A stretch of DNA of 63,460 bases from an uncultured beta proteobacterium (GCA_903899705.1 CAIUKQ010000105.1:1-63460); one strand, 5' to 3'. Positions 19,068 through 39,939 are shown, counted from the first letter of the stretch. The notes: generated from the letters alone by a model not told the origin. Numbers and translations are program-made.

Positions 19068-19763
19068 TTAGAGGTTCTTGCAAAGCAGGTATTGATTGGT
19101 ACCGTTTTCCACGAACTCGACTGTCGGCGCGGTGGCGGATGCGGCGGGGTTGGGCGCGGTCTGAAGTTGGCCCCTCAACTGGCCGCGAATGGACGAGCCA
19201 TCATCAACCTGCGTATCCACCGCTATGGCCACTTTGTCCGGCAGGTTGCTGGTGCAAATGATGTTGGAGGTAAAACCCATTCCTGATGTCTGGACACCGA
19301 CAATGCCATTGACGGAATTGTTGGGCTGCTGGGTACTGGCCGCCGCCGTTGTGTCTGTCGAACCGGGCACGAAGCCGGATAGGCGCAGGTGCAGCCAGAA
19401 CAGGTTGTTTTCAGGTCCGCCGACCGCCGGTGCCGCTGGAGGGTTGTTATAGACCTGGGTTGTGGCCGCAGCCACACCAACGAAGGTGCCGCTACCGTTG
19501 CCGCCAAACGCCGACGCGCCCCAGCGAGCTACCGTGGTCGCGTTAAGTTCATCTCCGGGCAAGGCGCGATACCGGTCCTGATAGGAGTACATGGCGGCCG
19601 ACAGTCCATTGAAATCATTGATCAGGTTTTTAATCTTCGCCTGGGTGATCATCTCCTGGCCTTTGAGAATGCCACCAAGCAGCAGACCGATAATGACCAG
19701 AACGATCGCAATCTCAACCAGGGTAAAACCTGTTTGATTGGACCTGCGTATTGATTTCCTCAT
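19068..19763 (-). CDS. Type IV pilin-like protein, copy 1 (prepilin-type N-terminal cleavage/methylation domain)
   Basis: 231 aa. Leader MRKSIRRSNQTG followed by FTLVEIAIVLVIIGLLLGG (G-1/F+1/E+5). C-terminal Cys pair (IICTSN...YLLCKNL). AAGGAGG RBS. Confidence 0.9.
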   Translation of the reverse strand: MRKSIRRSNQTGFTLVEIAIVLVIIGLLLGGILKGQEMITQAKIKNLINDFNGLSAAMYSYQDRYRALPGDELNATTVARWGASAFGGNGSGTFVGVAAATTQVYNNPPAAPAVGGPENNLFWLHLRLSGFVPGSTDTTAAASTQQPNNSVNGIVGVQTSGMGFTSNIICTSNLPDKVAIAVDTQVDDGSSIRGQLRGQLQTAPNPAASATAPTVEFVENGTNQYLLCKNL

Positions 19764-19808
19764 GTTGCCTCCTTATTGCCCGATGTCGTGCAAGGGTTTA
19801 ACTTCGCA

Positions 19809-19827
19809 AGCCCGCAAGCAACGGGCT
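19809..19827 (-). promoter_or_regulatory. Intercistronic hairpin between the two pilin copies (weak terminator or processing site)
   Basis: AGCCCG/CGGGCT 6-bp stem with a 7-nt loop. There is no proper U-tract on the transcribed (-) strand. Confidence 0.35.
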
Positions 19828-19853
19828 ATTTATTGATACAACAACCGCCAATA

Positions 19854-20555
19854 TCAAAGATTCTTGCAAAGCAGGTACTGATTGGTGCCGTTTTCAACAA
19901 ACTCTGCTGCGGGCGCGGTGGCGGCTGCGGCGGGGTTGGGCGCGGTCTGGAGTTGGCCCCTCAGCTGGCCGCGAATGGCCGATCCATCATCAACCTGCGT
20001 ATCCACGGCAATGGCAACCTTGTCCGGCAGGTTGCTGGTGCAGATGATGTTGGAGGTAAAACCCATGCCCGAAGTCTGAACCCCGACAATGCCGTTGACG
20101 GAGTTGTTCGGCTGCTGCGTGCTCGCTGCAGCGGCTGTGTCGGTCGACCCTGGCACAAATCCGGAGAGGCGCAGATGCAGCCAAAAAAGGTTGTTTTCCG
20201 GTCCGCCCAATGCAGGCGCTGCGGGCGGATTGTTATAGACCTGGGTCGTAGCGGCCGCGGCGCCGACGAAAGTGCCGCTGCCATCCCCGCCAAATGCCGC
20301 GGCACCCCAGCGAGCGACGGTGGTGGCGTTGAGTTCGTCGCCCGGCAGGGCGCGGTAGCGATCCTGATAGGAGTACATGGCGGCAGACAAGCCATTGAAA
20401 TCATTAATTAAATTCTTTATTTTCGCCTGCGTGATCATTTCCTGACCTTTCAGGATGCCACCCAACAGCAGGCCGATAATGACCAGAACGATCGCAATCT
20501 CGACCAAGGTGAAACCTGACTGGGCGGCTTTGGATCTATTTGAAAATTTGTTCAT
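19854..20555 (-). CDS. Type IV pilin-like protein, copy 2 (promoter-proximal paralog)
   Basis: ORF trimmed to MNKFSNRSKAAQSG/FTLVEIA... (cat at 20553-20555, GGAGG RBS). The mature part differs from copy 1 at 9 of 219 residues by hand alignment. Confidence 0.9.
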   Translation of the reverse strand: MNKFSNRSKAAQSGFTLVEIAIVLVIIGLLLGGILKGQEMITQAKIKNLINDFNGLSAAMYSYQDRYRALPGDELNATTVARWGAAAFGGDGSGTFVGAAAATTQVYNNPPAAPALGGPENNLFWLHLRLSGFVPGSTDTAAAASTQQPNNSVNGIVGVQTSGMGFTSNIICTSNLPDKVAIAVDTQVDDGSAIRGQLRGQLQTAPNPAAAATAPAAEFVENGTNQYLLCKNL

Positions 20556-20612
20556 AGGGCCTCCAGTTTGTATGTCCCGCAACCTGACTTTTGTCGGTAA
20601 GGACAAGATAAC

Positions 20613-20627
20613 GCAATATTTGTGCCT
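20613..20627 (-). promoter_or_regulatory. Sigma-54 (-24/-12) promoter of pilin copy 2
   Basis: The minus strand reads AGGCAC-AAATA-TTGC, an exact GGCAC-N5-TTGC spacing. It lies 58 nt upstream of the ATG at 20555. Confidence 0.8.
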
Positions 20628-20708
20628 GTCTGAAGGATGCCGAGAGGTCATATTCCCTCCAATTCGGAAGGAATTTGTCGAGATTTAAACATTTTTGACA
20701 ATTTCCCG

Positions 20709-21431
20709 TCACTTCCCCTTTTTTATCCTCGACTCGATTTCTTTCAGTCGCAGCTCCATTGTTCGCAATTCTCCAGGACTTTTGATCAGGCCTTTTTCAA
20801 TGTAGCCGCCGATCATGATTCGCGCGGTTTCCAATTCATTCATGTCTTCGAGAATGAAGATTTCCATCTGCTTTGCCCAAAGCGGTACGTCCTCTCCGGT
20901 GGCATTCTGCTGAATCGCTGCGGCATATTTTCTGGCCAGCGGCAAGTCCTTCAATCCGTGTTTGGCCACAGCGGCGGCGTGCGCGAGCCATGGCCAGCGG
21001 CGGCCGGGGTCCCTGAAAAACTCCTGATAGACAAACTCCAGCATTTGCCGTTTTTTTGCCTCGTTAGGAACATCTGCATACAGCCTGCTTGCAGCCATAA
21101 GTGGGTACTGACCGTTGGGGTCTAGACGAAGGATTTGGGTCAGCCAGGCCTGCAACTTTCCATAGTCAAGCGCCTGGAACGGTGTTCTGTCGCCGGATTG
21201 GTAGTCAAACGCCTGCAGATAAAGCATCAGCAGTTTGGCCGTTGGTATGGGGTCCCCGAAACTGGCGACCGCCAAGGCGTTTGATCCTGGTGGGGCAGGC
21301 AGATCCACGGCCTTGGGAACCAGCAGCGGATTGGTGGCTCGAACCCAGATCTGCACGGCAAAGGCCAGACCAAAGATGATCGCAATGCCCTTCGGAACTA
21401 CGTGAAAGGGACGCTCCAGGGATCCGGCCAA
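20709..21431 (-). CDS. Hypothetical membrane-anchored all-helical protein (function unknown)
   Basis: No motif recognised. One N-terminal TM segment (GIAIIFGLAFAVQIWV), then a helical, TPR-like region. No in-frame ATG lies near the 5' end. TTG at 21431 (GAGG 5 nt upstream) is preferred over TTG at 21491, which overlaps the upstream gene. Confidence 0.55.
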   Translation of the reverse strand: MAGSLERPFHVVPKGIAIIFGLAFAVQIWVRATNPLLVPKAVDLPAPPGSNALAVASFGDPIPTAKLLMLYLQAFDYQSGDRTPFQALDYGKLQAWLTQILRLDPNGQYPLMAASRLYADVPNEAKKRQMLEFVYQEFFRDPGRRWPWLAHAAAVAKHGLKDLPLARKYAAAIQQNATGEDVPLWAKQMEIFILEDMNELETARIMIGGYIEKGLIKSPGELRTMELRLKEIESRIKKGK

Positions 21432-21447
21432 ATCCGCCTCGCTCTCG

Positions 21448-22218
21448 CTAAAAGTTCTTCCGGTACAAGTCGACCATGGTCGCGGCGCCAATCAGCAACA
21501 GGTAAACAACGGTCTGTGTTGCCCATTGGGATATCTCTCCCATCGTCGGTCCCTGGTCCGTGAGCCACGACGTCAATGTCATGCGATCCAGGTTCGGCAT
21601 CATGAGTGCAATTGCGTCGACAATCCATCGAAACACATCGTCGGTCCACGAGGTTTCTATGCTGATGGGCGTGGCGGCAATGATCTGCATCGCACTGATG
21701 GATCGTGCGAGCAGGTAGAAACCGGCGGTTGCCGCGAATGCAGCAATGACATGGGTGAGTGATATCGCGCAAAAAACGCTGATTGCGGCGACTATCAGAA
21801 GTTCGCATGCTAGAGACCCCCCCCAGATCGCCACCTGTGAAATCGGAGAATAAATTGCGAGGGGCACGGAAAATCCGGCGGCGAGCGCCAACGCCACCGC
21901 TGCACAGCCGGTGATTTTTCCAAGGTAGTACTGGGAGCGGGCCGCGGGTTGAGACAGGAAAAACTCGACAATCTTGTCGTTGGCTTCGCGCGCAAGGCTG
22001 GTAATGCAAAACGCGGAGACCAGGAATACGCCTGTAGCGCGCAACATCACCGCCATGATCGCGGTCTGGATCTGCGCCAATTCGATCATCGCAACCTGGC
22101 TCAGGAATTGGGCGACGCCAAACGCTACGCCCATCGCGACGATCGCAACCCAGGTCATGCGGCTCCTGAGAGCCTCCAGAAAAGTGATTCTGGCGATGGT
22201 TAGGCTGAATACCGGCAC
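21448..22218 (-). CDS. ABC-2 family (NosY-like) transporter permease
   Basis: Six predicted TM segments. The N-terminus ..SLTIARITFLEALRSR.. is typical of ABC-2/NosY permeases. GTG at 22218 (GAGG 6 nt upstream) is preferred over GTG at 22254. Confidence 0.7.
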   Translation of the reverse strand: MPVFSLTIARITFLEALRSRMTWVAIVAMGVAFGVAQFLSQVAMIELAQIQTAIMAVMLRATGVFLVSAFCITSLAREANDKIVEFFLSQPAARSQYYLGKITGCAAVALALAAGFSVPLAIYSPISQVAIWGGSLACELLIVAAISVFCAISLTHVIAAFAATAGFYLLARSISAMQIIAATPISIETSWTDDVFRWIVDAIALMMPNLDRMTLTSWLTDQGPTMGEISQWATQTVVYLLLIGAATMVDLYRKNF

Positions 22219-22464
22219 AGACAACCTCGATTCCTTGTCCTTTGAGAACCGCACCAGTCAGGATGACCGCCCCAAAACCTTGCGCCGGCGACACGCTGGC
22301 ATTCGTTATCGGATTGCGCTTCTGTTGGCATAATACGTGGGTCAGGATTTTTGTGAATTGCGTTGAGCAGTTGAAGCGGGCCACACTTCGCATTCCGGCA
22401 TTCAATTCAAACCCATTCAATCCGTTCGACTGGCCCGGACAGAAACGGTTAAGGCGCGGATGAA

Positions 22465-24201
22465 ATGTCGATATTCCGTTTAACGCAAATCCCCCATCCT
22501 TTTACAAACCGTTACTGGCGCGTCTTTTTCGTGCTGATGCTGGTTTTGTTGCACCTGTCCGCGATGCGCGGTGCCGAGGATTTCTGGGCCCGGGCGCTGA
22601 TGCTCGCGCATTTTGGGTTTTTCATATTGTGGCAGCCGTTCATGCGAGGCGAGCAGCAATTGACAGTGCCGCAGGTCATCGCCGTTGCAGGGGTGTCGGC
22701 TGGCATCCTGTTCTTCCTGAACTGGTGGCTGCTGGGATTGTGGGTCAGTGTGCTCGCCGGTATTGTCGGCGGAAAGGTGTTTCTTTTTCAGGCGCCCTGG
22801 CTGCGGCGTTTTTACCTGCTGGTACTCACCTATCTGGTGGCGTTGCTTCTGGTGTGGATTGTGCCAAGCACATTGCTGTCCAACGGACTACCCAAGGATC
22901 TTGGCAAGCTCGCCGAATTCGGATTGCCCATCCTGTTTAGCGTCATGCTCCTGATACCGGCGGAAGCGGATTCGGCCGAGACACCACAGATCGTGGATTT
23001 CTTTTATTCCACGCTGCTGTTCCTGCTCCTTGTGGTGCTGGTTCTGGGCAGCTTTGCTTTCATGAGTATCGGCAGCTATGCGTACCTTGATGCATTGTCG
23101 GTGTCCATGCTGGTCATTGCCGCGGTATTGTTTTCTTTGAGCATTGCCTGGAATCCCCGCGCCGGATTCGGCGGATTGTCGATGTATTTTTCCAGGTATC
23201 TGCTGTCGATCGGTCTGCCTTTTGAGCAGTGGTTGTTCTTTCTGGCCGAGTTGTCGCGGTTGGAGACCAAGCCGGAGCGTCTGATGAAGGAGGCCAGCAC
23301 CGGCCTGTCGCGTCTTCCCTGGGTTTCCGGGGGCGCATGGCGCGCGGCCGAGCATTCCGGGGAATTTGGCACTGTATCCAGAAACGTCGTCGAATATTCC
23401 AATCAAGCCATGGAACTGAAAGTCTTTTCCAAAAATCCCCTGAGTCCGTCATTGGTCTGGCATTTTCACCTGCTTGGCCAGTTGCTCGGGGAGTTTTATC
23501 TGGACAAGGTTCGCGAACAGAAGTTGCGCGATCAAACCTATTTGCAGGCGGTCCACGAAACCGGCGCCCGCGTCACCCACGATGTGAAGAATCTCCTTCA
23601 GTCGCTCAACGTGCTTTGCGCCGCAGTAGAGAGCAATTCGCAGGCAGAACCGGCTGCAATTGTCGGCTTGCTTCGCCGCCAGTTGCCGGTCATATCACAA
23701 CGCCTGCAGCAGACGCTGGACAAATTACAAAAGCCCCACACCGACAGCCCAAGCTTCGTGCAGGCTCGCGTTTGGTGGGATGGGTTTCATAAGGATTACA
23801 GGGACCGTGGCGTTGATTTCAGTGAAGGTTCGATCAATGACGCGGTCTTGTTGCCCAAAGAGCTTTTTGACAGCGCAGGGGACAACCTGCTTCAAAACGC
23901 ACTCAGAAAGCGCAAGATGGACGAGGCGGTGTCGGTTCGCGTCATGTTCCGTTGCGATGATGCCGTAGAATTATCGGTCAGCGACAATGGCGAGCCGGTT
24001 CCGAGCGACGTTCTGGCCGGATTGATGAAGGGGCCGGTGCCATCAAGCAGCGGTTTTGGCATCGGTTTGTTTCAAACCGCGCGCCTCGCGGAGAGTGCCG
24101 GGTTTACCCTCCGCCTTGCGGGCAATGAATCGGGTGCGGTGACATTTTCACTGACTGCCAATGCGCGTGCATTGCCCGTCATGGTCGAGCCGGATTCTTA
24201 G
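22465..24201 (+). CDS. Multi-TM sensor histidine kinase (PrsK-like architecture)
   Basis: 578 aa. About 8 N-terminal TM helices, H-box HETGARVTHDVKNLLQSL, and a HATPase region (DNLLQNALRK, SDNGEPV, GFGIGLF). Confidence 0.85.
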   Translation: MSIFRLTQIPHPFTNRYWRVFFVLMLVLLHLSAMRGAEDFWARALMLAHFGFFILWQPFMRGEQQLTVPQVIAVAGVSAGILFFLNWWLLGLWVSVLAGIVGGKVFLFQAPWLRRFYLLVLTYLVALLLVWIVPSTLLSNGLPKDLGKLAEFGLPILFSVMLLIPAEADSAETPQIVDFFYSTLLFLLLVVLVLGSFAFMSIGSYAYLDALSVSMLVIAAVLFSLSIAWNPRAGFGGLSMYFSRYLLSIGLPFEQWLFFLAELSRLETKPERLMKEASTGLSRLPWVSGGAWRAAEHSGEFGTVSRNVVEYSNQAMELKVFSKNPLSPSLVWHFHLLGQLLGEFYLDKVREQKLRDQTYLQAVHETGARVTHDVKNLLQSLNVLCAAVESNSQAEPAAIVGLLRRQLPVISQRLQQTLDKLQKPHTDSPSFVQARVWWDGFHKDYRDRGVDFSEGSINDAVLLPKELFDSAGDNLLQNALRKRKMDEAVSVRVMFRCDDAVELSVSDNGEPVPSDVLAGLMKGPVPSSSGFGIGLFQTARLAESAGFTLRLAGNESGAVTFSLTANARALPVMVEPDS

Positions 24202-24432: not shown

Positions 24433-25800
24433 ATGAGTCATTTTCGATTGAGATTGCGGGGAAAACAGCGCGGAGCGGCAATATTGCTGTTTGCGATTGC
24501 AATCCTGATCATGTTCGTGACCATTGGAGAGGGGCTCCGGTCGATGACCTCCGCCACAGATTTCGCGAATTCGATGACCACTTCGGCGCGAATGGACAGG
24601 GTGCGTGAGGCGATAGCAAAATTCATCGCGACCAATAATCGCCTGCCTTGCCCCGCCATTCCGCAGTCCGATACGATTGTCGGCGCGGGGGTGGAGGCGC
24701 CCACACCCGGAACGTGCACCGGCGCTCTCTCGGGGACGGCCACAAAAAGAGGTTTGGTGCCCTGGGTTGCCCTTGGACTGCCCGTCGAAGTCTCCTATGA
24801 CGCCTATGGCCGCCACTTCACGTTTCTCGTGGCTACAGCCGCAACCGGATTGACTCAGCAAACCGTTGGCGGCATCACCGGGGCCATCACCCTTCATTCC
24901 GCTGCGCCCGTTGTTTTGGGTTTGGCAGGGGTCGGGTCGCAGAATCAAACCAACGCCTGTTCCACGGTGGCCGCCGTAACATCCTGCAACCGGCGAGGCA
25001 TCGCCGCATTGGTATCGCATGGTGAAAATGGGCTTGGGGGTTATCTTCCCAATGGAACGCAATTGACGTTTGTTGCCGGCCGCCAGAATACCAACGATCC
25101 AGAGTACGAAAATGCGGATTCCGACGATGCTCTGGTGACGATGAATGCAGTGACCTCAACCGATGACACAGTATCAATGTATGACGACAAGGTGGTCGTA
25201 TGGTCGGCGGCTGACATCATTCAGCGCGTTCCGATAACCGAATCGGTTGCTTCGGCGGATCGGGTTACGAACATGAAAATTCAGGTCATCAAATCCGCGT
25301 TGATTGGTTTTGCGATGGGGCACACGACGGTATCACCGGGTTCAACCTGCGTGAGCAGCGGCACGCCGGCCGGCGTGTTCTGCAGAAGGCTGCCGGTTCC
25401 TGACTATTCTCCTCTGGATGGAAACGAGGATTCGACAACAACCGGCACCGGGTTGTATCCGACGGCAGGCAACCACGCCCGCGTTCCCTATATTTCGGTC
25501 GGACTCCTCCTTAATGACATCAAGGATGGCTGGGGCAATTATTTTGACTATGCAGTTTCGGAGCGTCGCTTTGTGCGCGCTGGAAATGCGTCTGCTGCGA
25601 GTCATCGGGGCTTCAGTGGTACAACGCCGGCCAATCCGGCTTCGGCTGTCATAGCAGCCTGTTCCACCTACCATTGCTTTACACTCACCTCGAGTGGCCC
25701 CGATGGCACAATGGGCACGAGCGACGATATATCCATCGCGGTCAAGCTGGATGAGATTCGCACACTGTTCAACGCTGCCAGCGTTACTTATCCGCCGTGA
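24433..25800 (+). CDS. Large pseudopilin-like protein A; non-canonical N-terminus, two GspG-like modules
   Basis: 455 aa. N-terminus KQRGAAILLFAIAILIMF has no Phe+1 or Glu+5. It carries RLPCPA, GLVPWVALG, DAYGRHFTF...VSHGENGLGGY and a second set LPVPD, VPY, DGWGNYFDY...SSGPDGTMGTSDD. Confidence 0.7.
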   Translation: MSHFRLRLRGKQRGAAILLFAIAILIMFVTIGEGLRSMTSATDFANSMTTSARMDRVREAIAKFIATNNRLPCPAIPQSDTIVGAGVEAPTPGTCTGALSGTATKRGLVPWVALGLPVEVSYDAYGRHFTFLVATAATGLTQQTVGGITGAITLHSAAPVVLGLAGVGSQNQTNACSTVAAVTSCNRRGIAALVSHGENGLGGYLPNGTQLTFVAGRQNTNDPEYENADSDDALVTMNAVTSTDDTVSMYDDKVVVWSAADIIQRVPITESVASADRVTNMKIQVIKSALIGFAMGHTTVSPGSTCVSSGTPAGVFCRRLPVPDYSPLDGNEDSTTTGTGLYPTAGNHARVPYISVGLLLNDIKDGWGNYFDYAVSERRFVRAGNASAASHRGFSGTTPANPASAVIAACSTYHCFTLTSSGPDGTMGTSDDISIAVKLDEIRTLFNAASVTYPP

Positions 25801-25850: not shown

Positions 25851-27233
25851 ATGCTGGCCCGTTCGCAAAGAGGTTTTACGCTGATCGAGGTGGCGATTGC
25901 CCTCCTACTGGTCGGCCTCGCGCTCGCGTCAACCATGGTCGTCGTGACCACGCAGATCGAGGCGCGCAACACGAGGGAAACCCAGCGACGGATGGAAATA
26001 GTGAAGGCGTCATTGGCAAGCTTTGTCGCGAAGAACAGCCGTCTGCCCTGTCCGGCGGTGCCGACGCTGACCAATACCTCGGCCAACTATGGCGTCGAAG
26101 CCTCAACTCCCGGGACGTGCACGAGCACGGTGGCCGCAGGCGCGAGCAATGTCATCGGTGTCGTTCCGTGGGTGACCTTGGGCATTGAATCATCCTATGC
26201 GGCGGATCCGTACGGACATTTCTTTACTTACAACGTGGTTAAGGCGGAAACGAATCGGAATTCAAATACGATCACCAGCATGCGCGGAAATATCTCTGTT
26301 CACAGCGGCACGCCAGTCAGTCTTGGTTTGACCGGTGCCGGCGGTCTCTCCACCCAGAATCAGATCAACGCGTGCTCCACGACGCAGGGCGACAACGGGT
26401 GCAATATTGCCGCGGTGGTTGTGATTGTGTCTCATGACCGGAATGGCGCCGGCGCATATCAGACTTCGGGAGTCCAGTCCACGCTGCCCTCCGCCACGAC
26501 CAATCCCGCCGAATGGCAAAACGCCCAGGCTGATACAAAGTACGTCAATCCCTCGACGGGGTACGTCAAGGACGTCTATGACGATATCGTGTTCGCGATT
26601 ACTCCGGAAGACTTGTTGTTTCCCCTGGCACAGCAGGGCGCATTCAAGACGTCGCGCGCCGTTACCAACGACCGTTTGCAACTTGTGAAGAATGCCCTTT
26701 TGTCGTTCATCGTCAATAATTCGAGCGGATTTGGCAGCAGTGCCTGCAATGCCGGATCGACACCGCAGTGCCGGTATCTTCCGTTGCCGGATTCAGGTTT
26801 GCCTGTCGCGACAGGATATGACGGCGTCACGGACGCGCTTGCAACAACAGGGGTGATTCTTTGGGATCCTTCCGCGACAACCAATGCAATCGGCTGGCCC
26901 AGTTCAACAAATCTTTATGTCAGGGGACAGGTGCCCTATTCCACTTTGGGCATGCAGCAATGGGAAACTCTGGACGGCTGGGGTTCGGCGATTCAATATA
27001 TTGTCTATCAGACGATCGCCAATACGACGACGGCCAGTGGCATCGGAATTTCCACCACAACGCCCGCTTCGACCTATTCCGTTGCGATCAGGTTATGGTC
27101 CTATGGCGTCGACAAAACCGCGAATATGTCTGTGGGTAACACGTATTCTTCCCCGAGCGACGATATCGTTCTTGATATCTCGCCGGCGGAACTCAGGGGT
27201 TACCTGATTAACAGTGGGCGCGCAATCCCTTGA
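25851..27233 (+). CDS. Large pseudopilin-like protein B; canonical prepilin N-terminus, two GspG-like modules
   Basis: 460 aa. QRG/FTLIEVAIALLLVGL (G-1, F+1, E+5). Paralog of 24433..25800 sharing RLPCPA, VVPWVTLG, DPYGHFFTY...VSHDRNGAGAY, LPLPD, VPY and DGWGSAIQY motifs. Confidence 0.8.
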   Translation: MLARSQRGFTLIEVAIALLLVGLALASTMVVVTTQIEARNTRETQRRMEIVKASLASFVAKNSRLPCPAVPTLTNTSANYGVEASTPGTCTSTVAAGASNVIGVVPWVTLGIESSYAADPYGHFFTYNVVKAETNRNSNTITSMRGNISVHSGTPVSLGLTGAGGLSTQNQINACSTTQGDNGCNIAAVVVIVSHDRNGAGAYQTSGVQSTLPSATTNPAEWQNAQADTKYVNPSTGYVKDVYDDIVFAITPEDLLFPLAQQGAFKTSRAVTNDRLQLVKNALLSFIVNNSSGFGSSACNAGSTPQCRYLPLPDSGLPVATGYDGVTDALATTGVILWDPSATTNAIGWPSSTNLYVRGQVPYSTLGMQQWETLDGWGSAIQYIVYQTIANTTTASGIGISTTTPASTYSVAIRLWSYGVDKTANMSVGNTYSSPSDDIVLDISPAELRGYLINSGRAIP

Positions 27234-27302: not shown

Positions 27303-27785
27303 TCAGCGTTTGGCAGAGGGCTTGGCCGGGGGATTCGCGGATTTGATTTTGATTTCGCCACCACCCAAGCCATTGTTGATGGACCCGCTGTTCCTGTCGA
27401 GTGTTTGACCGACGCGCACATCGGTGGCCGGTTCCTCTTCAACCGGCTTTAGTGGAATGAGAGCCGGATTGCGCGGTTTATAGGCGTCGTTTTGGGACGC
27501 GCCGTTAATCCAGGTGGTGGTCTTTCCAGAGGACCGTGAAACCTGTCCATTGACCGTGTACAGACTTTCAACCTCCACGGTGGCCTCCTGAATGTTGAGT
27601 TCCCGCCTGCGATCCAGTTCCTGGCGCTGCTGTGGCGAGAAAAACAGCCGGCCAAGGTCCTTGGTAACGGCGTTGTCCTGACCGAAGGCGCCAATCGGCG
27701 CCAACATTGCCATCAGCAGGCAAACCGCCGGCGGCATTGTTCGGAGGGCTTCAGAAAATAAAGGGGCTGAGCTCACGTTTTTCAT
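27303..27785 (-). CDS. Secreted pilus-biogenesis accessory protein (MshK/PilP position; function unverified)
   Basis: 160 aa with a signal peptide (..LLMAMLAPIGAFG/Q). Last gene of the assembly operon; 4-nt overlap with the upstream gene. No motif recognised. Confidence 0.5.
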   Translation of the reverse strand: MKNVSSAPLFSEALRTMPPAVCLLMAMLAPIGAFGQDNAVTKDLGRLFFSPQQRQELDRRRELNIQEATVEVESLYTVNGQVSRSSGKTTTWINGASQNDAYKPRNPALIPLKPVEEEPATDVRVGQTLDRNSGSINNGLGGGEIKIKSANPPAKPSAKR

Positions 27786-28390
27786 GATTTCACCGGCTTT
27801 ACGACAACCAGATCCACTTCGCAGATAGAGCTAAGGCGTGGCGACGCCGATGACGCCTGCACGCCGCTACGCTCCAGTCGGTCAATCGTGCAGTGGCGGA
27901 TTGAGACCTGAGATAGCGCTGCAGCTTCAAGGTCGGAAAGGAATTTGAGCAAATCTTCCTCGTGAAGCAACTGCATTTCAAGCCTCATCCGGCTGGCCGC
28001 CAGATCGAGGGCGCCGGCGGGGGTCATCCCCGGATAGGCGAGCGGCTTTTGCGAATCGATGGTGTAGCGAATCTCGAATAGTTTCCTCGCGGCTTTTATC
28101 TTTGCAATCGAATCAATGAGATCAAGCCTGTTCTCCTGGTCAACCATGCCCCGCGATGCCATGCGCGCATACCAGACCATGTTTTCCTTGATTTCACGTT
28201 CCTCCTCGGAAACCTGGGCAACCTTCTTTTGCGTCTCTTCACTGGATTTGGCTGCCGCGCCGCGGGCAACCTTGGCGTCGGCGAGCCATGATTCGGACAC
28301 GGCGACAAAACCCGCCCCCAAGCCGATCAATAGCACCGCAAGCGCGACGGGCAGGCGCATTTTTTTGAAATCGGCGCGGTCAATCCTCAC
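27782..28390 (-). CDS. PilO/MshJ-like pilus assembly protein
   Basis: 202 aa: a single TM segment (LPVALAVLLIGLGAGF), a coiled-coil, then a small C-terminal domain. GTG start overlaps the upstream stop; an alternative ATG is at 28360. Confidence 0.6.
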   Translation of the reverse strand: MRIDRADFKKMRLPVALAVLLIGLGAGFVAVSESWLADAKVARGAAAKSSEETQKKVAQVSEEEREIKENMVWYARMASRGMVDQENRLDLIDSIAKIKAARKLFEIRYTIDSQKPLAYPGMTPAGALDLAASRMRLEMQLLHEEDLLKFLSDLEAAALSQVSIRHCTIDRLERSGVQASSASPRLSSICEVDLVVVKPVKS

Positions 28391-32932: not shown

Positions 32933-34353
32933 CGTTCCAGCTCCTGCGCGCGCGTTTCAGCCTGTCTGCGATCGAATCCGACAGGGCGTGTACCCGCGAG
33001 GGCGACAGCTTTCCGGTAGTAATCGGCTGCAATTTTGCGTTGGCGGAGATGGTCCAGGCTTACCGCGAGATTGAATGCAAAATCGGCATTTTGCGGGTCT
33101 GCACTGAATGCCTTGAAATAGGCGTCCTGCGCTTCCCCCCAGCGTGACTGCGCCGAATACTGGTTTCCCAATGCGAAGTAGAGGTGGGTTGTATCCGGCT
33201 GCGCCGCAATAAGGTTTTTGATCCGGCTTTCGAGTTGCACGGGATCCACGTTGCCCTGCAACGCGATCAGTGCCGCCTGTGCAAGTGAGTCCCGCGGGTC
33301 CAGCTCGATCAATTTGAGATAGCGCATTTCGGCGGTTTCGTAATCCCGCATTCTCACGTCGATCGCAGCCAGACCCAGCAGGGCATCGCGGTTATTGGCT
33401 TCCCGGCTGAGAGCCAGCTGGTATTCCGATCGCGCACGGTCGAAATCACCGCTCTGAAAAGCGGCGTAGGCATTCTCGAGAGTGACATTCCCCTGCAATG
33501 CGGGCGGCGTTATTTTTATCGGCAATCGCGGCGGGCGAGGTACGGCTGGGGTCTGCGCGGGTGCGCTTTGGGGCGATGTTCCTGCCGGAGCGGTGACCGT
33601 TGGCGGCACCCCGCCTGCCTTACCCGATCGTTGCGCCGACGGAGTCCCGGTCGGAACTTCCGCTTTGGCAGGCGCGGATTTGGGGGGGGCGGCTACGGAA
33701 GGCGCAATTGCCACCACGGCCGACGCGGGGCCCGGGGCGACCGGCGCCGGTTGAACGCCCGGCGTTGGTGCCGCAGTCACTGTTTGCACTTTCTCGTCTG
33801 CCCCGGGCGCGGTGGCTAGTTCAGATTGGGGATCCGTCACGGGGGGCGGGGGTGGGGGCCTTGAGATCGGCGCAGATTTCGGGGCATTCTGAATCGCGGT
33901 CGTATTCACGGAGTAGTGAGGCTGCAGCTGCCACCAAAGGTAGACGCCGTAGCCGACAGCGGCGAGCCCGAGTGCGCCCAGAGTGATGTAAAAGGGCCGT
34001 TTCGGGTTGTAATCAACCTCTTTGGCTTCAAACATTTGGCGGGCGGCTTGACGCTGCGGATTGGGTCTGGGAGGAGATACTACATCTGCATCGGACGGGG
34101 GGGCAGGTGGTCTTGCCGGCATCGCTGCGACGGGAACGGGTTCAACCACGGGTGCCGGTGCCGACTTTGGTGCAGCGCTTTGCTCCGTCTCCGAAGCGTT
34201 GTATTTCGGCATTTGATCCGGACGCAGCGTCGGTTCATCGGGCTCCTCAAAGCGAATGCTGCCCGAATCAAGTTCTTCCGGCTGTGGATTGTTTGCCAGT
34301 GCGCCCTGTTTGGCCAGTTCGGCTTTTTTGAGGGCTTCAAGCAGCAAGCTCAT
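32929..34353 (-). CDS. TPR-repeat pilus biogenesis protein with Pro/Ala-rich linker (MshN-like)
   Basis: 474 aa: N-terminal region, one TM segment (FYITLGALGLAAVGYGVYLWW), a long P/A-rich segment, and C-terminal TPR repeats. 4-nt overlaps on both sides. Confidence 0.7.
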   Translation of the reverse strand: MSLLLEALKKAELAKQGALANNPQPEELDSGSIRFEEPDEPTLRPDQMPKYNASETEQSAAPKSAPAPVVEPVPVAAMPARPPAPPSDADVVSPPRPNPQRQAARQMFEAKEVDYNPKRPFYITLGALGLAAVGYGVYLWWQLQPHYSVNTTAIQNAPKSAPISRPPPPPPVTDPQSELATAPGADEKVQTVTAAPTPGVQPAPVAPGPASAVVAIAPSVAAPPKSAPAKAEVPTGTPSAQRSGKAGGVPPTVTAPAGTSPQSAPAQTPAVPRPPRLPIKITPPALQGNVTLENAYAAFQSGDFDRARSEYQLALSREANNRDALLGLAAIDVRMRDYETAEMRYLKLIELDPRDSLAQAALIALQGNVDPVQLESRIKNLIAAQPDTTHLYFALGNQYSAQSRWGEAQDAYFKAFSADPQNADFAFNLAVSLDHLRQRKIAADYYRKAVALAGTRPVGFDRRQAETRAQELER

Positions 34354-36191
34354 TTCCGCGCGTCCTCGGAAAACGTGGACGGATTGGGTTGTGTGAGGAA
34401 GTTCTCATCAGGCGCAAAAACGCGATAAGCACGGTAATCGCCGTCAATGCTGGGATCGCGAATCACCACCGGCCTGAAAAATATGACAAGTTCGGTTTTC
34501 GTATTGGCGCGGTTGCGCTGCCCGAACAGCTGTCCGAAGCCCTCAGAACTTCTGGCACCCGGGATGCCGTCCTCCAGGTCCGTCACCGACTCCTGGATGA
34601 GTCCGCCCATGACCGCGATCTGCCCGCTGTTCACTTTGATCAGCGACTCCATCTCGCGGCGTTGAATTTCCGGAAAGCGGCTCACGATGGGCGCGAGGTT
34701 GCAGCCCCCAACCGGGACAGGAATGCCGCACGGATTGGCCAGCGCCGGATTCGGATCATTGACGAAGTTGACAATGCGCGACAGGGACGGCCGCACATTG
34801 AGCAGCACAATGTCCGTGTCGCCGATCTGGGGGGGCACATTCATCACAAAGCCGACGGGGACAGTGTTTGCGGTGGTGGTGAAGGTTGTTTGCGAGACGT
34901 TGGCCGTGGCGTTAGTGCTTACCGAAATGTTGAAATAAACACGCTCGTCAACGACCTTCAGCATGGCGGTTTGATTGTTTAAAACCGAGATCTTGGGGCT
35001 GGAAAGCACCCGGACATTGCCAAAGGATTCGAGAAGCTGGACGATTGAGGTGAGATTGCCCAGATTGAAGTTCGGCGCAGACAGGTTGCCGACGAACAGG
35101 CCCTGGGTGGGTGTCGAGGCAAGGCCGCCAACGGGCAACTGGCTGATGCTGATTCCCGAGGGGCCTCGTCGCAACAGCGACCAGTTGATGCCCTGCTGAA
35201 ACTGGTTGCTCAACTGTACCTCGACGATGGTGGCCTCGATCAGAACCTGCCGCCTGGCATTCACCAGCACACGGTCCAGGAATTCCTGAATTTTTTCGTG
35301 CTGGCGGGAGGTTGCGCGAATGCTCATGACGCCGGCTTCCGCATTTGCGATGACCGATGCGGCTTCCCTGAATGTCGAATTTGAGGTTCCGCCACCGGGA
35401 GCGGCCGGAAGGGGGCCCGGCAGTGGCTGCGCTGCACCAGCGCCCCCCGCGAGAGAGCCGGCAATTGCTCCCAGGGGATTTGGCGGGCTTGCAGGCGCCG
35501 CCGGAGCTGCAGCGGCCGGTGTGCTGTTTGCTGTGTTGCCGGCAGGTATGATCTTGTCGGTTTCGTGGAGGATTTCCTCAACGTTCTTGACCAGGGTCTC
35601 CCAGAACTTGTTGCTGGATTTATTGGTCAGTGTTGTGCTGGAGTTGTTGCCACCGCCACCACCGGGAGCGGCGCCGCCACCGCCGCCACTTGCTCCGCCA
35701 GTACCTGAGATCTGGCTCGAAATGCCGACCGTGCCGGTCGATGTACGCTCAATGTTGACGTAATCGATTTTGTAAATGCGAAGGAAGGGCGAGTCCGGCA
35801 TCACGATCAGATTGGGAGGATCGAACTCCCAGCGCATGTCCACCTGCTTTGAGATGCGTGTCAGCAACTGCGGCAGGGTCTGGTCGATCGCGTTCATCGT
35901 GACGGTCCCGGAAATACCGTTGTGAATGTCGACATTCAACTTGGCATCGCGGGCCAGTGCAAAAAGCAATTCACTGACTTTGACGCCATTGACGACAACG
36001 CTATAGGTCTCGGGTTTCTGGATCTGTTTCGGTTTTGGGAGGAACGGTGAAAACGGAACCGGCGCGGGAATTGAACCTGTGGTTGCGGGTGCTTCCGAAA
36101 CGATATGCGTATCCGATTGCTTCATGATTGGCGGGGCGGTGCATCCAAACAGCAAAGCCACGCCCGCCATCAATAATCTCTTCGTCGTCAT
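34350..36191 (-). CDS. Secretin (MshL/PilQ/GspD family), predicted lipoprotein
   Basis: Secretin C-domain (..VLSSPKISVLNNQTAMLKV.., ..ELVIFFRPVVI..). Lipobox LLFGC. ATG at 36191 is preferred to TTG at 36200. Two Gly/Ala/Pro low-complexity inserts. Confidence 0.9.
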   Translation of the reverse strand: MTTKRLLMAGVALLFGCTAPPIMKQSDTHIVSEAPATTGSIPAPVPFSPFLPKPKQIQKPETYSVVVNGVKVSELLFALARDAKLNVDIHNGISGTVTMNAIDQTLPQLLTRISKQVDMRWEFDPPNLIVMPDSPFLRIYKIDYVNIERTSTGTVGISSQISGTGGASGGGGGAAPGGGGGNNSSTTLTNKSSNKFWETLVKNVEEILHETDKIIPAGNTANSTPAAAAPAAPASPPNPLGAIAGSLAGGAGAAQPLPGPLPAAPGGGTSNSTFREAASVIANAEAGVMSIRATSRQHEKIQEFLDRVLVNARRQVLIEATIVEVQLSNQFQQGINWSLLRRGPSGISISQLPVGGLASTPTQGLFVGNLSAPNFNLGNLTSIVQLLESFGNVRVLSSPKISVLNNQTAMLKVVDERVYFNISVSTNATANVSQTTFTTTANTVPVGFVMNVPPQIGDTDIVLLNVRPSLSRIVNFVNDPNPALANPCGIPVPVGGCNLAPIVSRFPEIQRREMESLIKVNSGQIAVMGGLIQESVTDLEDGIPGARSSEGFGQLFGQRNRANTKTELVIFFRPVVIRDPSIDGDYRAYRVFAPDENFLTQPNPSTFSEDARK

Positions 36192-36283
36192 GGAAGGCAA
36201 ACCTTTCCAGCAAGCGACATGGTCGCGAAGTTAGATGAAAAGTATAATCTAATAAATTGATTTTGCGCGATAATTTATAAAAT

Positions 36284-37780
36284 TCATTGACTATTTTGAC
36301 TTCGCATGCGATCAACGCTTCGAAAATACGGATTGGGGGCTTTGAGGTCTGCGGGCAACTCGGATATGGCGTTGCGCACGTCAACGGTGGTGGGGTAGTT
36401 CCCCATTGCCACGCGGTAATGCTGTGCACCATTGATTTTTACACTATAGACGTAAAGATCCTGTGTCGGCAGCAATTTCTGCGCCCGATGGATAAAACTC
36501 TCCAAGCGTGCGGGTTCGCTTTCCGCCACTGTAATTAGTTGAATTGAATAGTTTTTTCCGGGGGCGCCTTTGAGCCATTCCTGGGTCTTGGCGAAGCTTT
36601 GTTGGGCCAGTTTTCCAAGCGAATGATTTTCGGGGGCCTGCATGGCCACAGCGTCGTCCCCGGTCAGACTTTTGACCGCTGGATTGAGGTTTTTTTCGGA
36701 TTGCACCTGTGCAGCGGGCTGCACCGCCGCCGCCGGATCTCGCTGCGGCAACGCTTCGGGACGCTCGTCAACCCGCACCTGCGGGACATCCTTTTCCGGG
36801 GCCGGCGACGTCTGGATGCCTTGCGTTCCGGCGGCGACCGGTGGGGGTTGCTGCACAATCGCTGCAACATGGTTCGGCGTCGCCGCAAGCATCATGGCGA
36901 GTCCATATCCAATGGCAATGCCGGCGGCTGCGCCAGCGCAAATCAGCGCAATGCGACCCAATTTCGGTTTCGGGCGGTAGAAGTCGGAATCAGCAACTGC
37001 CCGCCGGGCTTCTCGTTCGCCCACGGTATGGGTGTTTGCGGCAAAAGCGGCAAGCAGTGATTTATCCGCAAGAATATTGATTCTTCGGGTGAGACCCTTT
37101 GACGCTTCGTCGATACGTCTGATCGCGGCAGGTGAAAACGGATTGGGCCCGCGATAACCTGCGGCCCGCAATCGGTAGTCGATGTAGCTTCGAATGTCGT
37201 TTCGAACCAGGGGTTCAAGGCGGAATCCATGAGTGATCCTCTCCTTGAGCTGGCGCATTTCGGCCGTGTTGAGAAGTTCATCAAGTTCCGGCTGCCCGAA
37301 AAGCACGATCTGCAGCAGTTTGTTGCGATTGGCCTCGAGATTGGATAGGAGGCGAATTTCCTCGAGGGTTTCACGCGGCATTGCATGCGCTTCGTCGATC
37401 AGCACCACGACACGTCGCCCGGCGGCGTACCGTTCAATAAGAGCATCCTGTATGGAACGCAAAATCCTCGTGCCGCGCTCGCTGTCCGGATTCAGTTTCA
37501 GTTCATCCGAGATCGCAATGAGGATTTCGTCTTTCGAAAGAGACGGATTCGCGAGGTAAATAATTTCGACATGCGGCGGAAGACGCTCCATGAGAACCCG
37601 GCACAACATGGTTTTTCCGCTGCCCACTTCACCCGAAACCTTCACGATTCCTTCGTCGTGGGTGATGGCATACAGGAGTGCGTCCAGCGTGGCGCCGCGA
37701 TTTGCGCCCGCGAAGAAAAAATCGGTGTGCGGGGTTATTCGAAACGGGGCTTCGCTCAGGCCGAAATGGTCGAAATACAT
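36284..37780 (-). CDS. ExeA/MshM-type AAA+ ATPase fused to TM segment and C-terminal SPOR-like domain
   Basis: 498 aa. FGLSEAPFRITP, Walker A GEVGSGKT, Walker B VLIDEAH. TM segment (IALICAGAAAGIAIGYGLAMML). C-terminus YSIQLITVAE...YRVAMGNYPTTVDVRNAISELP looks like a SPOR domain. Confidence 0.85.
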   Translation of the reverse strand: MYFDHFGLSEAPFRITPHTDFFFAGANRGATLDALLYAITHDEGIVKVSGEVGSGKTMLCRVLMERLPPHVEIIYLANPSLSKDEILIAISDELKLNPDSERGTRILRSIQDALIERYAAGRRVVVLIDEAHAMPRETLEEIRLLSNLEANRNKLLQIVLFGQPELDELLNTAEMRQLKERITHGFRLEPLVRNDIRSYIDYRLRAAGYRGPNPFSPAAIRRIDEASKGLTRRINILADKSLLAAFAANTHTVGEREARRAVADSDFYRPKPKLGRIALICAGAAAGIAIGYGLAMMLAATPNHVAAIVQQPPPVAAGTQGIQTSPAPEKDVPQVRVDERPEALPQRDPAAAVQPAAQVQSEKNLNPAVKSLTGDDAVAMQAPENHSLGKLAQQSFAKTQEWLKGAPGKNYSIQLITVAESEPARLESFIHRAQKLLPTQDLYVYSVKINGAQHYRVAMGNYPTTVDVRNAISELPADLKAPNPYFRSVDRMRSQNSQ

Positions 37781-37787
37781 GACGGGT

Positions 37788-39221
37788 TCAGGGCTGCTTC
37801 TGCAGCGCTTCCATCCGGGAATACAGGGTTGTGCGGTTGATTCCCAGCAATTTTGCCGCCTGGCTGACGTTTCCGCGGGTCAACTTCATGGCCGCCTCGA
37901 TGTACCCCTGCTCCCACTGCTTGAGGGTCTGGTCCAGGTTGAAGTCACGTTCACGCTGCAGGTGCTTTTGCGCCTGGTCCACGAGGGCTTCCGGATCCCG
38001 TTCCTCAAGGGGGGCTACGCGCGTTTGCTGAGGAAAGTCCTCCATATCCAGTTCGGGCTCCAGTTCCCTGGCGGATAGGCGTTGGCCCGCGTACTTGGTG
38101 GCCAGACGGATGGTGATGTTCCTCAATTCCCTGACGTTGCCCGGGAAACGGTATTCCTGCCAGAGCTGCTTGGCGGAATCTTCCAGCGAGAACGTCTGGA
38201 GTTGTGCCTGGGCGGCATAGAATTTCTGAAAGTGCTCGAGCAGCAATGTCTTGTCATCGTCCATTTCCCGCAACGGGGGAACGCTGATGGTGAAGACCGA
38301 CAGCCGGTGGTAAAGGTCGGCTCGAAAGTGCCCCTTTTTGATTTCCTGACGCAGATCGCGGTTTGTGGCGGCAATGACCCTTGCCTCTGAATGGCGCTGT
38401 TGCGTCTCGCCCACCCGCTGATATTCGCCATTTTCCAGTACACGGAGCAATTTGGCCTGCAATTCCATCGGCAACTCACCGATTTCATCCAGAAACAGGG
38501 TTCCGTCCGCGGCGTCTTCGAAATAACCCGATTTGTTCTGTGTGGCGCCTGTAAATGAGCCTTTTGCATAGCCAAAAAGAGTCGGTTCCACCAGTGTCGG
38601 CGCGATTGCCGCGCAGTTGAGCGCGAACCAGGGCTTTGACCTGCGCCAGGAAAGCCGGTGAAGCAGATTGGCGACCAATTCCTTGCCGGTTCCGGACTCC
38701 CCTTCGATCAGGGCCGGGTATGGCGAGTCCGCGTACTGGTTGATCTGGTTCTTCAGTTTTTGAAGCGGCGGGCTGTTCCCAATGAGAGGATCCGTGTCGG
38801 TTGCGCCACCCCCCGATATTTCTGCTGCGCGGAATTGCAATGCGCGCAAAAGAATCTTTTTCAGACTCTCCGCGTCGCAGGGTTTCGCGACAAATTCGGT
38901 TGCCCCCAGGGTTCTGGCATGACGCGCATTCGCGGCGTCGTTTTGACCGGACAGCACCAGAATCTTCATGGCCGGCGAATGCGCGAGCAGATCACCTATC
39001 AGGGCGAACCCTTCGTCGGGACGATGCGGCGCCGGCGGAAGTCCCAGGTCGATGAGGGCGAGTTGCGGGGCATCGTCCCGCTGTCGCAGCAGGCTGATGG
39101 CATGGCGACGCGAATCGCTGACGAGGACATCAAAATCCCCGCTCAGCGCGAACGAAAGGGTCTCGGTGATGAGCGGGTCGTCGTCAACTAGCAACAGGCT
39201 CGGTTTATCGGCCATGGACAT
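37788..39221 (-). CDS. Sigma-54-dependent response regulator (REC-AAA+-Fis HTH; PrsR-like)
   Basis: 477 aa. REC domain with LALIDLGLPP, Walker A GESGTGKE, sigma-54 contact loop GSFTGA, and C-terminal HTH (GNVSQAAKLLGINRTTLYSRM). Confidence 0.92.
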   Translation of the reverse strand: MSMADKPSLLLVDDDPLITETLSFALSGDFDVLVSDSRRHAISLLRQRDDAPQLALIDLGLPPAPHRPDEGFALIGDLLAHSPAMKILVLSGQNDAANARHARTLGATEFVAKPCDAESLKKILLRALQFRAAEISGGGATDTDPLIGNSPPLQKLKNQINQYADSPYPALIEGESGTGKELVANLLHRLSWRRSKPWFALNCAAIAPTLVEPTLFGYAKGSFTGATQNKSGYFEDAADGTLFLDEIGELPMELQAKLLRVLENGEYQRVGETQQRHSEARVIAATNRDLRQEIKKGHFRADLYHRLSVFTISVPPLREMDDDKTLLLEHFQKFYAAQAQLQTFSLEDSAKQLWQEYRFPGNVRELRNITIRLATKYAGQRLSARELEPELDMEDFPQQTRVAPLEERDPEALVDQAQKHLQRERDFNLDQTLKQWEQGYIEAAMKLTRGNVSQAAKLLGINRTTLYSRMEALQKQP

Positions 39222-39939
39222 TCGATTCGATGCATTTCAGGAACGCGCGCTCAAGCGACGGTTCTCCCTGGCGTTCCAGCAACATGCCGGGGCTCCCGCT
39301 ATACGCCACCGAGCCGCAATGCAAGACCACCATATCGTCGCAGATTTCATCAATGTCGGCGAGAGAGTGCGAGGTGAAGACAAGGGACTTGCCGTCATTT
39401 TTGAGCCTTTGCAGCATTTTTTTTACATGCACCCTCGCGCTTGGATCCAGGCCGCTCATGGGTTCATCGAGGACAAAAAGCTCCTTGCGGGAGAGAAAAC
39501 AGGCCGCCAGCCCCAGCTTTTGCGTCATCCCTTTTGAGAAGGTCCGAACAGGTTTGTCCAGGCAGGAAGGCGCAAGATCCAGATCGGCAAAGGTTGAAAG
39601 TACCGATTGATCATCCCAATCCGACCCGGAAATCTGCCGCGTGGCCCGAATGAACTCCCGCCCCGTCAGAAACCAGGGGGGGGTAAAACGCTCGGGCAGA
39701 AAAGTCAGGCAGGCGCGGGCCGAGGGCCTCGTGCTGGGCATCCCCTTGATTTCGATCGCTCCGCTGTCGAAGGAGCAGAAATCGAGCATGCATTTCAGGA
39801 GTGTTGTCTTGCCCGCGCCGTTTTCGCCGGCCAGGCCGAGAAGTTGACCGGGCGCAACGCTGAATTCCACATCGTCGAGAATCTTGACGCGACCGAAGCT
39901 TTTGCTGACTTTTTTGAAGCTGAGTATTGGCGCAGGCAT
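39205..39939 (-). CDS. ABC transporter ATP-binding protein (first gene of the pilus operon)
   Basis: 244 aa. Walker A GENGAGKTT, signature FSKGMTQK, Walker B LFVLDEP, H-loop TSH. 17-nt overlap with the response-regulator gene. Confidence 0.88.
   Translation of the reverse strand: MPAPILSFKKVSKSFGRVKILDDVEFSVAPGQLLGLAGENGAGKTTLLKCMLDFCSFDSGAIEIKGMPSTRPSARACLTFLPERFTPPWFLTGREFIRATRQISGSDWDDQSVLSTFADLDLAPSCLDKPVRTFSKGMTQKLGLAACFLSRKELFVLDEPMSGLDPSARVHVKKMLQRLKNDGKSLVFTSHSLADIDEICDDMVVLHCGSVAYSGSPGMLLERQGEPSLERAFLKCIESNVHGR

Follow-up and report, generated by a model that had tools for sequence, protein, structure and literature searches.

A 21-kb gene block in the genome of an uncultured beta proteobacterium (GCA_903899705.1, CAIUKQ010000105.1:1-63460; this whole 63,460-nt stretch is referred to as the window) encodes what is, with a probability of about 0.7 by our estimate, an intact MSHA-branch type IV pilus system that is inherited with the chromosome, belonging to a large unstudied family of Betaproteobacteria. 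Reading of the open reading frames (ORFs) together with domain scans identified 17 intact genes of one type IV filament system within positions 19068-39939; all 17 ORFs are full length, and the GC content and skew of the block match those of its flanks. An earlier note on this DNA had described a self-contained type IV filament block at this site, located between core genes, and all of the parts it named were recovered at essentially the stated coordinates, with the number of proteins corrected from 19 to 17. The most likely function is that of a cyclic di-GMP (c-di-GMP)-responsive adhesive, biofilm-related pilus, as judged for both c-di-GMP control and pilus function from the genes alone. Type IV filaments power processes that range from adhesion and biofilm formation to DNA uptake and secretion, and the MSH branch has a single experimental model, Vibrio cholerae (PMC6668835). 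The locus reveals a large, probable sister family to this Vibrio model, in which the minor-pilin set is reduced and an ABC module is linked to the pilus genes.

Organization of the pilus block

The block is bounded on the left by a bidirectional intrinsic terminator (19024-19053, both strands) located between a kefB-like gene and the second pilin gene, and on the right by the divergent spacer before mlaF. The terminator, predicted previously, folds strongly in both orientations (-18.7 kcal/mol on the plus strand and -20.6 kcal/mol on the minus strand; z ~-5), with 0 of 200 shuffled sequences being equally stable. Ten genes form a long minus-strand operon (27303-39939) that is transcribed in the order ABC ATPase, sigma-54 response regulator, ExeA-like ATPase, secretin, TPR protein, MshE-type ATPase, GspF-type platform, and proteins of 524, 202 and 160 aa. 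These genes overlap or lie closely spaced, as had been noted, from a 17-nt overlap up to a gap of ~90 nt. Converging on this operon are three plus-strand genes, one for a histidine kinase and the others for products of 455 and 460 aa, and the leftmost minus-strand genes encode an ABC-2 permease, a 240-aa protein and two prepilins. Pfam and NCBIfam profiles provided domain assignments for 12 of the 17 proteins; five core proteins of the family are without any Pfam match.

The machinery operon encodes MSH-like components

In the classification of the type IV filament superfamily (TFF-SF), the mandatory MSH genes are mshA, mshE, mshG and mshL together with mshM, encoded in a single locus without a prepilin peptidase (PMC6668835). 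The organization observed here agrees with the single-locus part of this definition, as all parts reside in one 21-kb block and no peptidase A24 was detected in the scanned ORFs of the window. The mshE counterpart is an extension ATPase (31211-32932, minus strand; T2SSE, 418 bits) with an MshEN N-terminal domain (55 bits; NF053729, 57.8 bits against a cutoff of 38). This domain contains two 24-residue motifs separated by a 5-residue spacer, which is the arrangement by which MshEN is defined (PMC5013675), and both motifs are found in 62 of 66 relatives. Matches of the ATPase in the PDB are PilB, PilF and GspE. The mshG counterpart is a GspF/PilC/MshG-type inner-membrane platform (29978-31183, minus strand) with two T2SSF repeats (165 bits), which scores 304 bits on the GspF model (cutoff 424).

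The secretin (34350-36191, minus strand; Secretin, 103.6 bits; Secretin_N_2, 31 bits) starts at ATG 36191, which yields the lipobox LLFGC of a lipoprotein, and its best model is MshL (TIGR02519; 215.7 bits, cutoff 250.2) as opposed to GspD (140 bits) or PilQ (67 bits). Upstream of it lies the gene of an ExeA/MshM-like AAA ATPase (36284-37780, minus strand; AAA_22, 100 bits) with a transmembrane (TM) segment and a periplasmic SPOR domain (20.5 bits) that matches the DamX SPOR structure 2lfv (E 6.7e-5); the nearest curated model is TIGR03015 (216 bits, under the cutoff of 324). An MshN-like TPR protein (32929-34353, minus strand) combines a proline-rich linker with matches to several TPR families in its C-terminal 180 aa. 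Together with the MshEN domain, these proteins bear out the MSHA flavor that had been attributed to the locus.

The remaining three proteins of the operon were assigned from structure or position. For the 524-aa protein (28387-29961, minus strand), no match was obtained in Pfam (E up to 10), NCBIfam or PDB sequence searches. An AlphaFold model built from 45 sequences (pLDDT 77) presents an actin-like N-terminal domain, a long TM helix and a periplasmic alpha/beta domain, and its top Foldseek matches are PilM (3jc8, 5eou, 2ych) and the cytoplasmic domain of EpsL/GspL (1yf5, 4pht), with E ~2e-9. The protein is thus predicted to have the layout of an MshI/GspL-like assembly protein. The PilM-PilN fusion suggested for this gene holds in so far as a PilM/GspL fold appears in the structure model, but finds no counterpart in Pfam or NCBIfam. 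The adjacent 202-aa bitopic protein (27782-28390, minus strand) has one N-terminal TM segment and occupies the position of MshJ/PilO/GspM, which together with its topology suggests an equivalent role; no match was found in Pfam (E up to 10), in a PDB profile search or in hhalign comparison with the C-terminal half of the MshI-like family, and its previous label of PilO-like therefore reflects position alone. By its position, the 160-aa secreted protein (27303-27785, minus strand) may take the MshK/PilP role. It carries an N-terminal hydrophobic segment and a conserved GRLFFxPxxR motif, and matched no family or structure in Pfam (E up to 10) or a PDB profile search.

Major pilins and a two-gene minor-pilin set

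Two tandem genes encode the major pilin. Copy 1 (19854-20555, minus strand; 233 aa, 14-aa leader, N_methyl) starts at ATG 20555 behind a GGAGG ribosome-binding site, and not at 20651. Copy 2 (19068-19763, minus strand; 231 aa, 12-aa leader) carries the processing motif G/FTLVE, a Pfam N_methyl match of 29.8 bits and a C-terminal cysteine pair. Both copies share 93% identity, and the mature subunit comprises ~219 aa. The pilins have a class III signal peptide and the N_methyl motif, and resemble solved pilins only in the alpha1 helix, with a globular part that matches no known pilin. A weak hairpin between the two genes (19809-19827, minus strand; -12.2 kcal/mol, z -1.8) is a possible attenuator, although this evidence is weak.

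The only other canonical prepilin N-terminus in the window belongs to large minor pilin B (giantB; 25851-27233, plus strand; 460 aa), with the motif G/FTLIE and an N_methyl score of 27.4 bits. Large minor pilin A (24433-25800, plus strand; 455 aa) has a hydrophobic, pilin-like N-terminus without Glu5 (KQRG/AAILL) and no Pfam match. GspK/PilX-type tip subunits likewise lack Glu5. A and B align over their full length with 34% identity, and neither gave a Pfam or NCBIfam family match beyond N_methyl. In ~40 relatives, the same position is occupied, on the operon strand, by genes for a 592-657-aa protein without Glu5 followed by a 256-296-aa prepilin. Residues 4-265 of giantB align with the whole length of one such prepilin, the 296-aa minor pilin of locus L008, at 32% identity (E 2e-31), and homology was also evident between the N- and C-terminal halves of giantB (hhalign probability 98.6, E 8.5e-16), giving two globular modules. 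The N-terminus of the 592-657-aa proteins is very similar to that of A. Beyond this the alignment is weak (best E 0.005), and the link comes mainly from the N-terminus and gene order. The giantB-prepilin alignment, the shared position and the half-to-half homology of giantB point to A and B as the family's own two-gene minor-pilin set, here inverted, with giantB enlarged by duplication of its globular module. The proposal that two giant paralogs replace the usual minor-pilin set was therefore abandoned, as they constitute the set of this family. The AlphaFold2 model of giantB (pLDDT 76, pTM 0.72) contains a typical 52-residue alpha1 helix at residues 11-62, and a Foldseek search returned no significant fold match in the PDB.

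The inverted arrangement is common to the closest relatives, L086 and L087, in which the pair is 85-92% identical to that of the window. Neither inverted repeats of note flanking the inverted segment nor an obvious promoter for the pair was found. In L086 (1-940), homology ends at window position 24241, just past the stop of the kinase gene, and the adjoining gene is a fragment of an unrelated signaling protein with a weak HNOBA match, which suggests a rearrangement breakpoint beside the inverted pair. Homologues of the giant pseudopilins also occur as orphan genes in Dechloromonas and on a Burkholderiales metagenome scaffold, and their use as markers of the system elsewhere was rejected. These isolated homologues (35-43% identity, no pilus machinery nearby) are found in L001 at 10001-11107 (Dechloromonas denitrificans) and in L002 and L003 at 10001-11203; one adjoins a VgrG/type VI secretion system (T6SS) spike gene and a Sel1 protein, and the other lies among catabolic genes.

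A predicted sigma-54 circuit at the major-pilin promoter

A sigma-54 -24/-12 element, GGCACaaataTTGC, is located at 20613-20626 on the minus strand, ~58 nt upstream of pilin 1. Among relatives, 38 of 64 pilin-gene starts, mostly those of the first copy, are preceded by the same element at a distance of 30-100 nt, compared with ~0.016 matches per region expected by chance. No sigma-54 element was found upstream of pilin copy 2, and no second intergenic -24/-12 element was present in the locus, including upstream of the long operon, the kinase and the giant genes. The description of the locus as sigma-54-wired thus applies to the major-pilin promoter, to which this wiring is limited, but not beyond it. 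Further upstream, the inverted repeat TGTCA-N15-CGACA (20676-20700, minus strand), read from the sequence, resembles an activator site. At the same position, 25 of 36 relatives carry a longer block of TGTC/GACA half-sites (TGTCR..CGTCR..TGTCC..CRACA; shuffled sequences, mean 0.47, maximum 4) situated 60-110 nt upstream of the -24 element. The repeat in the window is shorter than this block and does not match the counted pattern. In seven relatives of one subgroup (L041, L042, L045, L058, L061, L072 and L074), though not in the window, a CRP-like palindrome, cGTGAtttc(n)tTCACa, lies between the activator block and the sigma-54 promoter.

Both partners of a predicted two-component system are encoded in the block. 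The sigma-54-dependent response regulator (37788-39221, minus strand) comprises a receiver domain (Response_reg, 52.8 bits), an AAA+ domain with GSFTGA motif (Sigma54_activat, 221 bits) and a Fis-type helix-turn-helix (HTH_8, 52 bits). The sensor histidine kinase (22465-24201, plus strand) has ~7-8 TM segments, the H-box THDVKN and an HATPase_c domain (33.7 bits); the TM scan revealed no large periplasmic domain, a topology that would permit intramembrane sensing. When loci covered on both sides were compared, regulator and kinase were both present in 25, both absent in 4 and never found singly. The sigma-54 element at the pilin gene is absent from L077, L081, L082 and L085, which are without a linked kinase or nearby regulator. 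Kinase and regulator would be phosphorelay partners in a circuit that runs to the pilin promoter. An activator with receiver, sigma-54 AAA+ and helix-turn-helix domains, a -24/-12 element with upstream site at the pilin gene, and a membrane kinase are the features of PilS/PilR-type control, and the proposed sigma-54 control of the pilin resembles PilS/PilR-pilA logic at the level of mechanism.

A proposed ABC module with a 240-aa partner

Three further proteins probably make up a conserved accessory module. The ABC transporter ATPase (39205-39939, minus strand; ABC_tran, 82.7 bits) is encoded by the first gene of the long operon, ~17 kb away from the ABC-2 family permease (21448-22254, minus strand; PF12679, 29.8 bits; ~6 hydrophobic segments). 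A candidate sigma-70-like promoter of the permease unit lies at 22330-22357 (minus strand) with 10 of 12 hexamer positions matching, as a consensus match only. An overlapping 340-aa ORF (21398-22420, minus strand) is a spurious, arginine-rich frame. The third protein, a membrane-anchored TPR-like protein of 240 aa (20709-21431, minus strand; start TTG 21431), has one TM segment and no match in Pfam or NCBIfam, and its profile weakly matches consensus TPR. Its homologues make up 3,454 clusters (90% identity), all called hypothetical where named. In 36 of 43 loci, Pseudoduganella L081 among them, the corresponding position at the head of the operon is filled by a homologue of the ABC ATPase with at least 45% identity.

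The main points of interest of this locus are the ABC transporter, together with its 240-aa partner, and a reduced minor-pilin set without a fold match in the PDB. It may be conjectured, tentatively and at odds we put well below even, that there is a distinct type IV filament subclass of which ABC ATPase, permease and 240-aa protein form an obligatory, co-evolving part. In this subclass, extraction or modification of pilins or the assembly of the fiber would be coupled mechanistically to an ABC exporter, and the fiber would be primed by only two minor pilins from a globular module without a PDB fold match. If true, this subclass, studied in a cultured Oxalobacteraceae carrier, could explain the role of PilGHI-type transporters in pilus biogenesis. 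The family provides a second, tractable setting in which the need of some pili for an ABC transporter can be addressed, and it offers a clear sigma-54 circuit as well as several unannotated protein families to name.

Distribution and genomic site of the family

The locus is not a singular oddity but a member of a widespread, conserved and uncharacterized MSH-type pilus variant, and its combination of parts is not peculiar to this genome. The MshI-like 524-aa family comprises at least 939 clusters when grouped at 90% identity, of which every named one is called hypothetical, with 2,560 representatives at 50%, and neither it nor the 240-aa family has a Pfam domain. The system was located in 80 genome loci, almost all from Burkholderiales or from metagenome-assembled genomes of Betaproteobacteria, which inhabit soil, freshwater and groundwater. 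Where enough upstream sequence was available, platform, ATPase and secretin were present in all 43 loci, the sigma-54 activator in 39 and the ABC ATPase in 36. Where enough downstream sequence was available, permease, 240-aa protein and pilin were found together in 39 of 43 loci, and in 37 of 43 they were accompanied by the kinase. A more distant, single-strand version that lacks the kinase is found in cultured Pseudoduganella and Duganella. The Pseudoduganella locus, which can be seen in full, also lacks the activator and has the ABC ATPase, the permease and the 240-aa protein. In Massilia Root351, core machinery and a pilin occur with neither regulator, and permease and 240-aa protein were not detected there. 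No relevant paper on this system emerged from literature searches that covered Oxalobacteraceae, Rhodocyclaceae and other Betaproteobacteria.

The chromosomal site, between kefB and mlaF, is also shared by most relatives. A kefB neighbor occurs in seven loci, and mlaF is adjacent in Rhodocyclaceae and Sulfuricella. A scan of metagenomes anchored on mlaF showed that 35 of 49 contigs with upstream sequence carry the diverging pilus operon; kefB lies directly upstream of mlaF in two of the 14 contigs without it (L136 and L151), which answers the question posed by the earlier note of whether relatives have these two genes side by side. The position beside mlaF or kefB is kept even in relatives, Rhodocyclaceae and Sulfuricella included, that share only 26-51% identity in the MshI-like protein. 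Since GC content is like that of the flanks and the position is kept in distant relatives, old residence with repeated loss is the simplest reading of the site. In L005, an O-antigen ligase/Wzy_C family gene (20350-21563) directly follows the pilin, where the window has kefB.

Comparison with characterized filament systems

Among the closest counterparts is the MSHA pilus of V. cholerae, encoded by the mshI-F and mshB-Q operons (PMC4624765, PMC6668835). Both systems are confined to a single locus without a prepilin peptidase or retraction ATPase, and share a c-di-GMP-type MshE ATPase and a GspF-like MshG; they also appear to have in common an MshL-type secretin, an ExeA-like MshM and a TPR protein MshN, as well as a GspL/PilN-like MshI followed by two small putative assembly proteins. 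However, gene order is M-L-N-E-G-I-J-K here and I-J-K-L-M-N-E-G-F in Vibrio (PMC4624765), which upholds the difference in order reported before. MshF and the large MshQ are missing from our locus, as is the accessory minor-pilin set MshB/C/D/O/P, in place of which stand two minor pilins with no detected sequence relation to its members. Further departures from Vibrio are the SPOR domain of the ExeA-like protein, the incorporation of a sigma-54 two-component system and of an ABC module, a mature pilin of ~219 aa, and scores that fall below cutoff on all MSH-type models.

Two-component and ABC genes within a pilus locus were indeed present as noted earlier, but have precedent in the type IVa pilus (T4aP) clusters of Myxococcus and Geobacter, in which pilS/pilR and pilGHI lie beside pilA (PMC6060248, PMC3724824). 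There, a sensor kinase and sigma-54 activator control the pilin gene, and pilus biogenesis depends on three proteins encoded beside that gene, of which one is an ABC ATPase and another a permease of the ABC-2 type; in Myxococcus xanthus, PilGHI is required for pilin translocation and S motility (PMC3724824, PMC5544727). The likeness of the ABC modules is an architectural parallel only. In contrast to the present locus, where the ABC ATPase is ~17 kb from the permease and heads the machinery operon, those clusters are T4aP clusters with separate PilM, PilN, PilO and PilP, a PilQ secretin, and PilT and PilD in the cluster. The window proteins also stay below the T4aP cutoffs for PilB (516 vs 676 bits) and PilQ (67 vs 284 bits), the PilM-like and periplasmic parts are fused, and PilT is missing from the locus.

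Several proteins matched NCBIfam models of the XrtA/PEP-CTERM system. PrsK was the best, though weak, match of the histidine kinase, in its C-terminus (TIGR02916; 43.8 vs 300), TIGR03015 that of the ExeA-like ATPase, PrsR the second match of the response regulator (TIGR02915; 367 vs 502.6) and PrsT the third of the TPR protein (40 vs 312). A link to PEP-CTERM/exosortase was rejected, given that every one of these scores falls far short of its cutoff and that no exosortase turned up among the window ORFs scanned, and the sub-cutoff matches of these four proteins hint at a shared ancestry of accessory and regulatory modules.

Alternative explanations

Some observations weigh against an MSHA-branch pilus. 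No component reaches the curated cutoff of an NCBIfam equivalog model specific for MSH, type II secretion systems (T2SS) or T4aP, and the MshJ-like and MshK-like roles are without sequence support. The first MshEN motif starts with His and not with the guanine-stacking Arg of Vibrio MshE (PMC5013675), and for the ATPase the GspE model gives a slightly better score (523.8 bits) than the PilB model (516.2 bits). The window ORFs that were scanned include neither a prepilin peptidase nor PilT. The earlier note was correct on this last absence but not in considering it atypical, because the MSH definition does not include a peptidase (PMC6668835) and the Vibrio MSHA pilus uses a pilT encoded outside the msh cluster (PMC4624765).

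One alternative is a type II secretion-like machine, in which a short periplasmic pseudopilus would drive folded proteins through the secretin and no surface pilus would be made. GspE and GspF are indeed the best-scoring models for motor and platform, the layout of the 524-aa protein is that of GspL (actin-like cytoplasmic domain, TM helix, periplasmic domain), the solved secretins nearest in sequence are GspD, an ExeA-like helper is known from Aeromonas ExeAB, and MshEN-type ATPases occur in T2SS too (PMC5013675). Nevertheless, we consider this reading unlikely, as all Gsp scores lie under the T2SS cutoffs (GspE 523.8/630, GspF 304/424, GspD 140/351 and GspG 25/89 bits, score/cutoff), and a GspC-like protein, a 140-aa major pseudopilin of the GspG type and a GspH-I-J-K set are all missing. 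MshL is the best model of the secretin, with Secretin_N_2 instead of GspD-type N-terminal domains. The major subunit of ~219 aa, with its disulfide-type C-terminal Cys pair, tandem duplication and own strong sigma-54 promoter, is pilin-like, and no candidate substrates are linked to the locus.

The inheritance of the locus can also be questioned, as the site between kefB and mlaF is variably occupied (14 of 49 contigs are empty, with kefB next to mlaF in two) and the block is bounded by a terminator and a divergent spacer, which could indicate a horizontally acquired accessory island instead of an ancestral part of the chromosome. Such an origin seems improbable to us: base composition matches the flanks, no integrase, tRNA gene or flanking repeats were seen, and conservation of the position across strongly diverged MshI-like proteins is better explained by ancient presence and repeated loss. 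It is also conceivable, although we give it very little credence, that the minor-pilin inversion uncoupled the pair from the operon and left a decaying or silent remnant without a functional filament in this organism. The pair is inverted relative to ~40 relatives and without an obvious promoter, and homology to L086 breaks nearby at 24241, but none of the 17 ORFs is truncated, the regulatory elements are intact, and the conservation of the inverted pair in L086 and L087 argues for selection.

Proposed assembly of the pilus

If the block is an MSHA-branch pilus system, the multi-TM histidine kinase would phosphorylate the sigma-54 activator, which would then bind the conserved upstream site and open the sigma-54 promoter of the first pilin gene, with the second copy expressed by read-through. 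Prepilins would be cleaved by a peptidase encoded elsewhere and polymerized by the MshE-type ATPase on the GspF-like platform, with the N-domain of the ATPase probably conferring the c-di-GMP response and the MshI/GspL-like protein and its bitopic partner holding the platform. Assembly may be primed by the two large minor pilins, A acting without Glu5 in the manner of GspK/PilX and B with Glu5. The fiber would exit through the MshL-type lipoprotein secretin, the assembly of which is likely to be aided by the ExeA-like ATPase, with its peptidoglycan-binding SPOR domain, and by the TPR protein. By analogy with PilGHI in Myxococcus, a helper role in pilin export or assembly may fall to the ABC ATPase, the permease and the 240-aa protein.

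Flanking genes

The block is surrounded by core genes, with kdsD, lptB, rpoN, hprK and rapZ to its left and genes of the mla, murA, his and tatC group to its right, which places it at the classic kdsD/lpt/rpoN-mla junction. Between lptB and kdsD, a plus-strand ORF of 446 aa (14476-15816) looks spurious and has no family match; the minus strand of this stretch presumably holds lptA, lptC and kdsC. The gene for sigma-54 itself, rpoN (11802-13241, minus strand), is located ~6 kb to the left of the pilus locus in its usual lptB-rpoN-hprK-rapZ cluster, with kdsD (15779-16909) and kefB in between.

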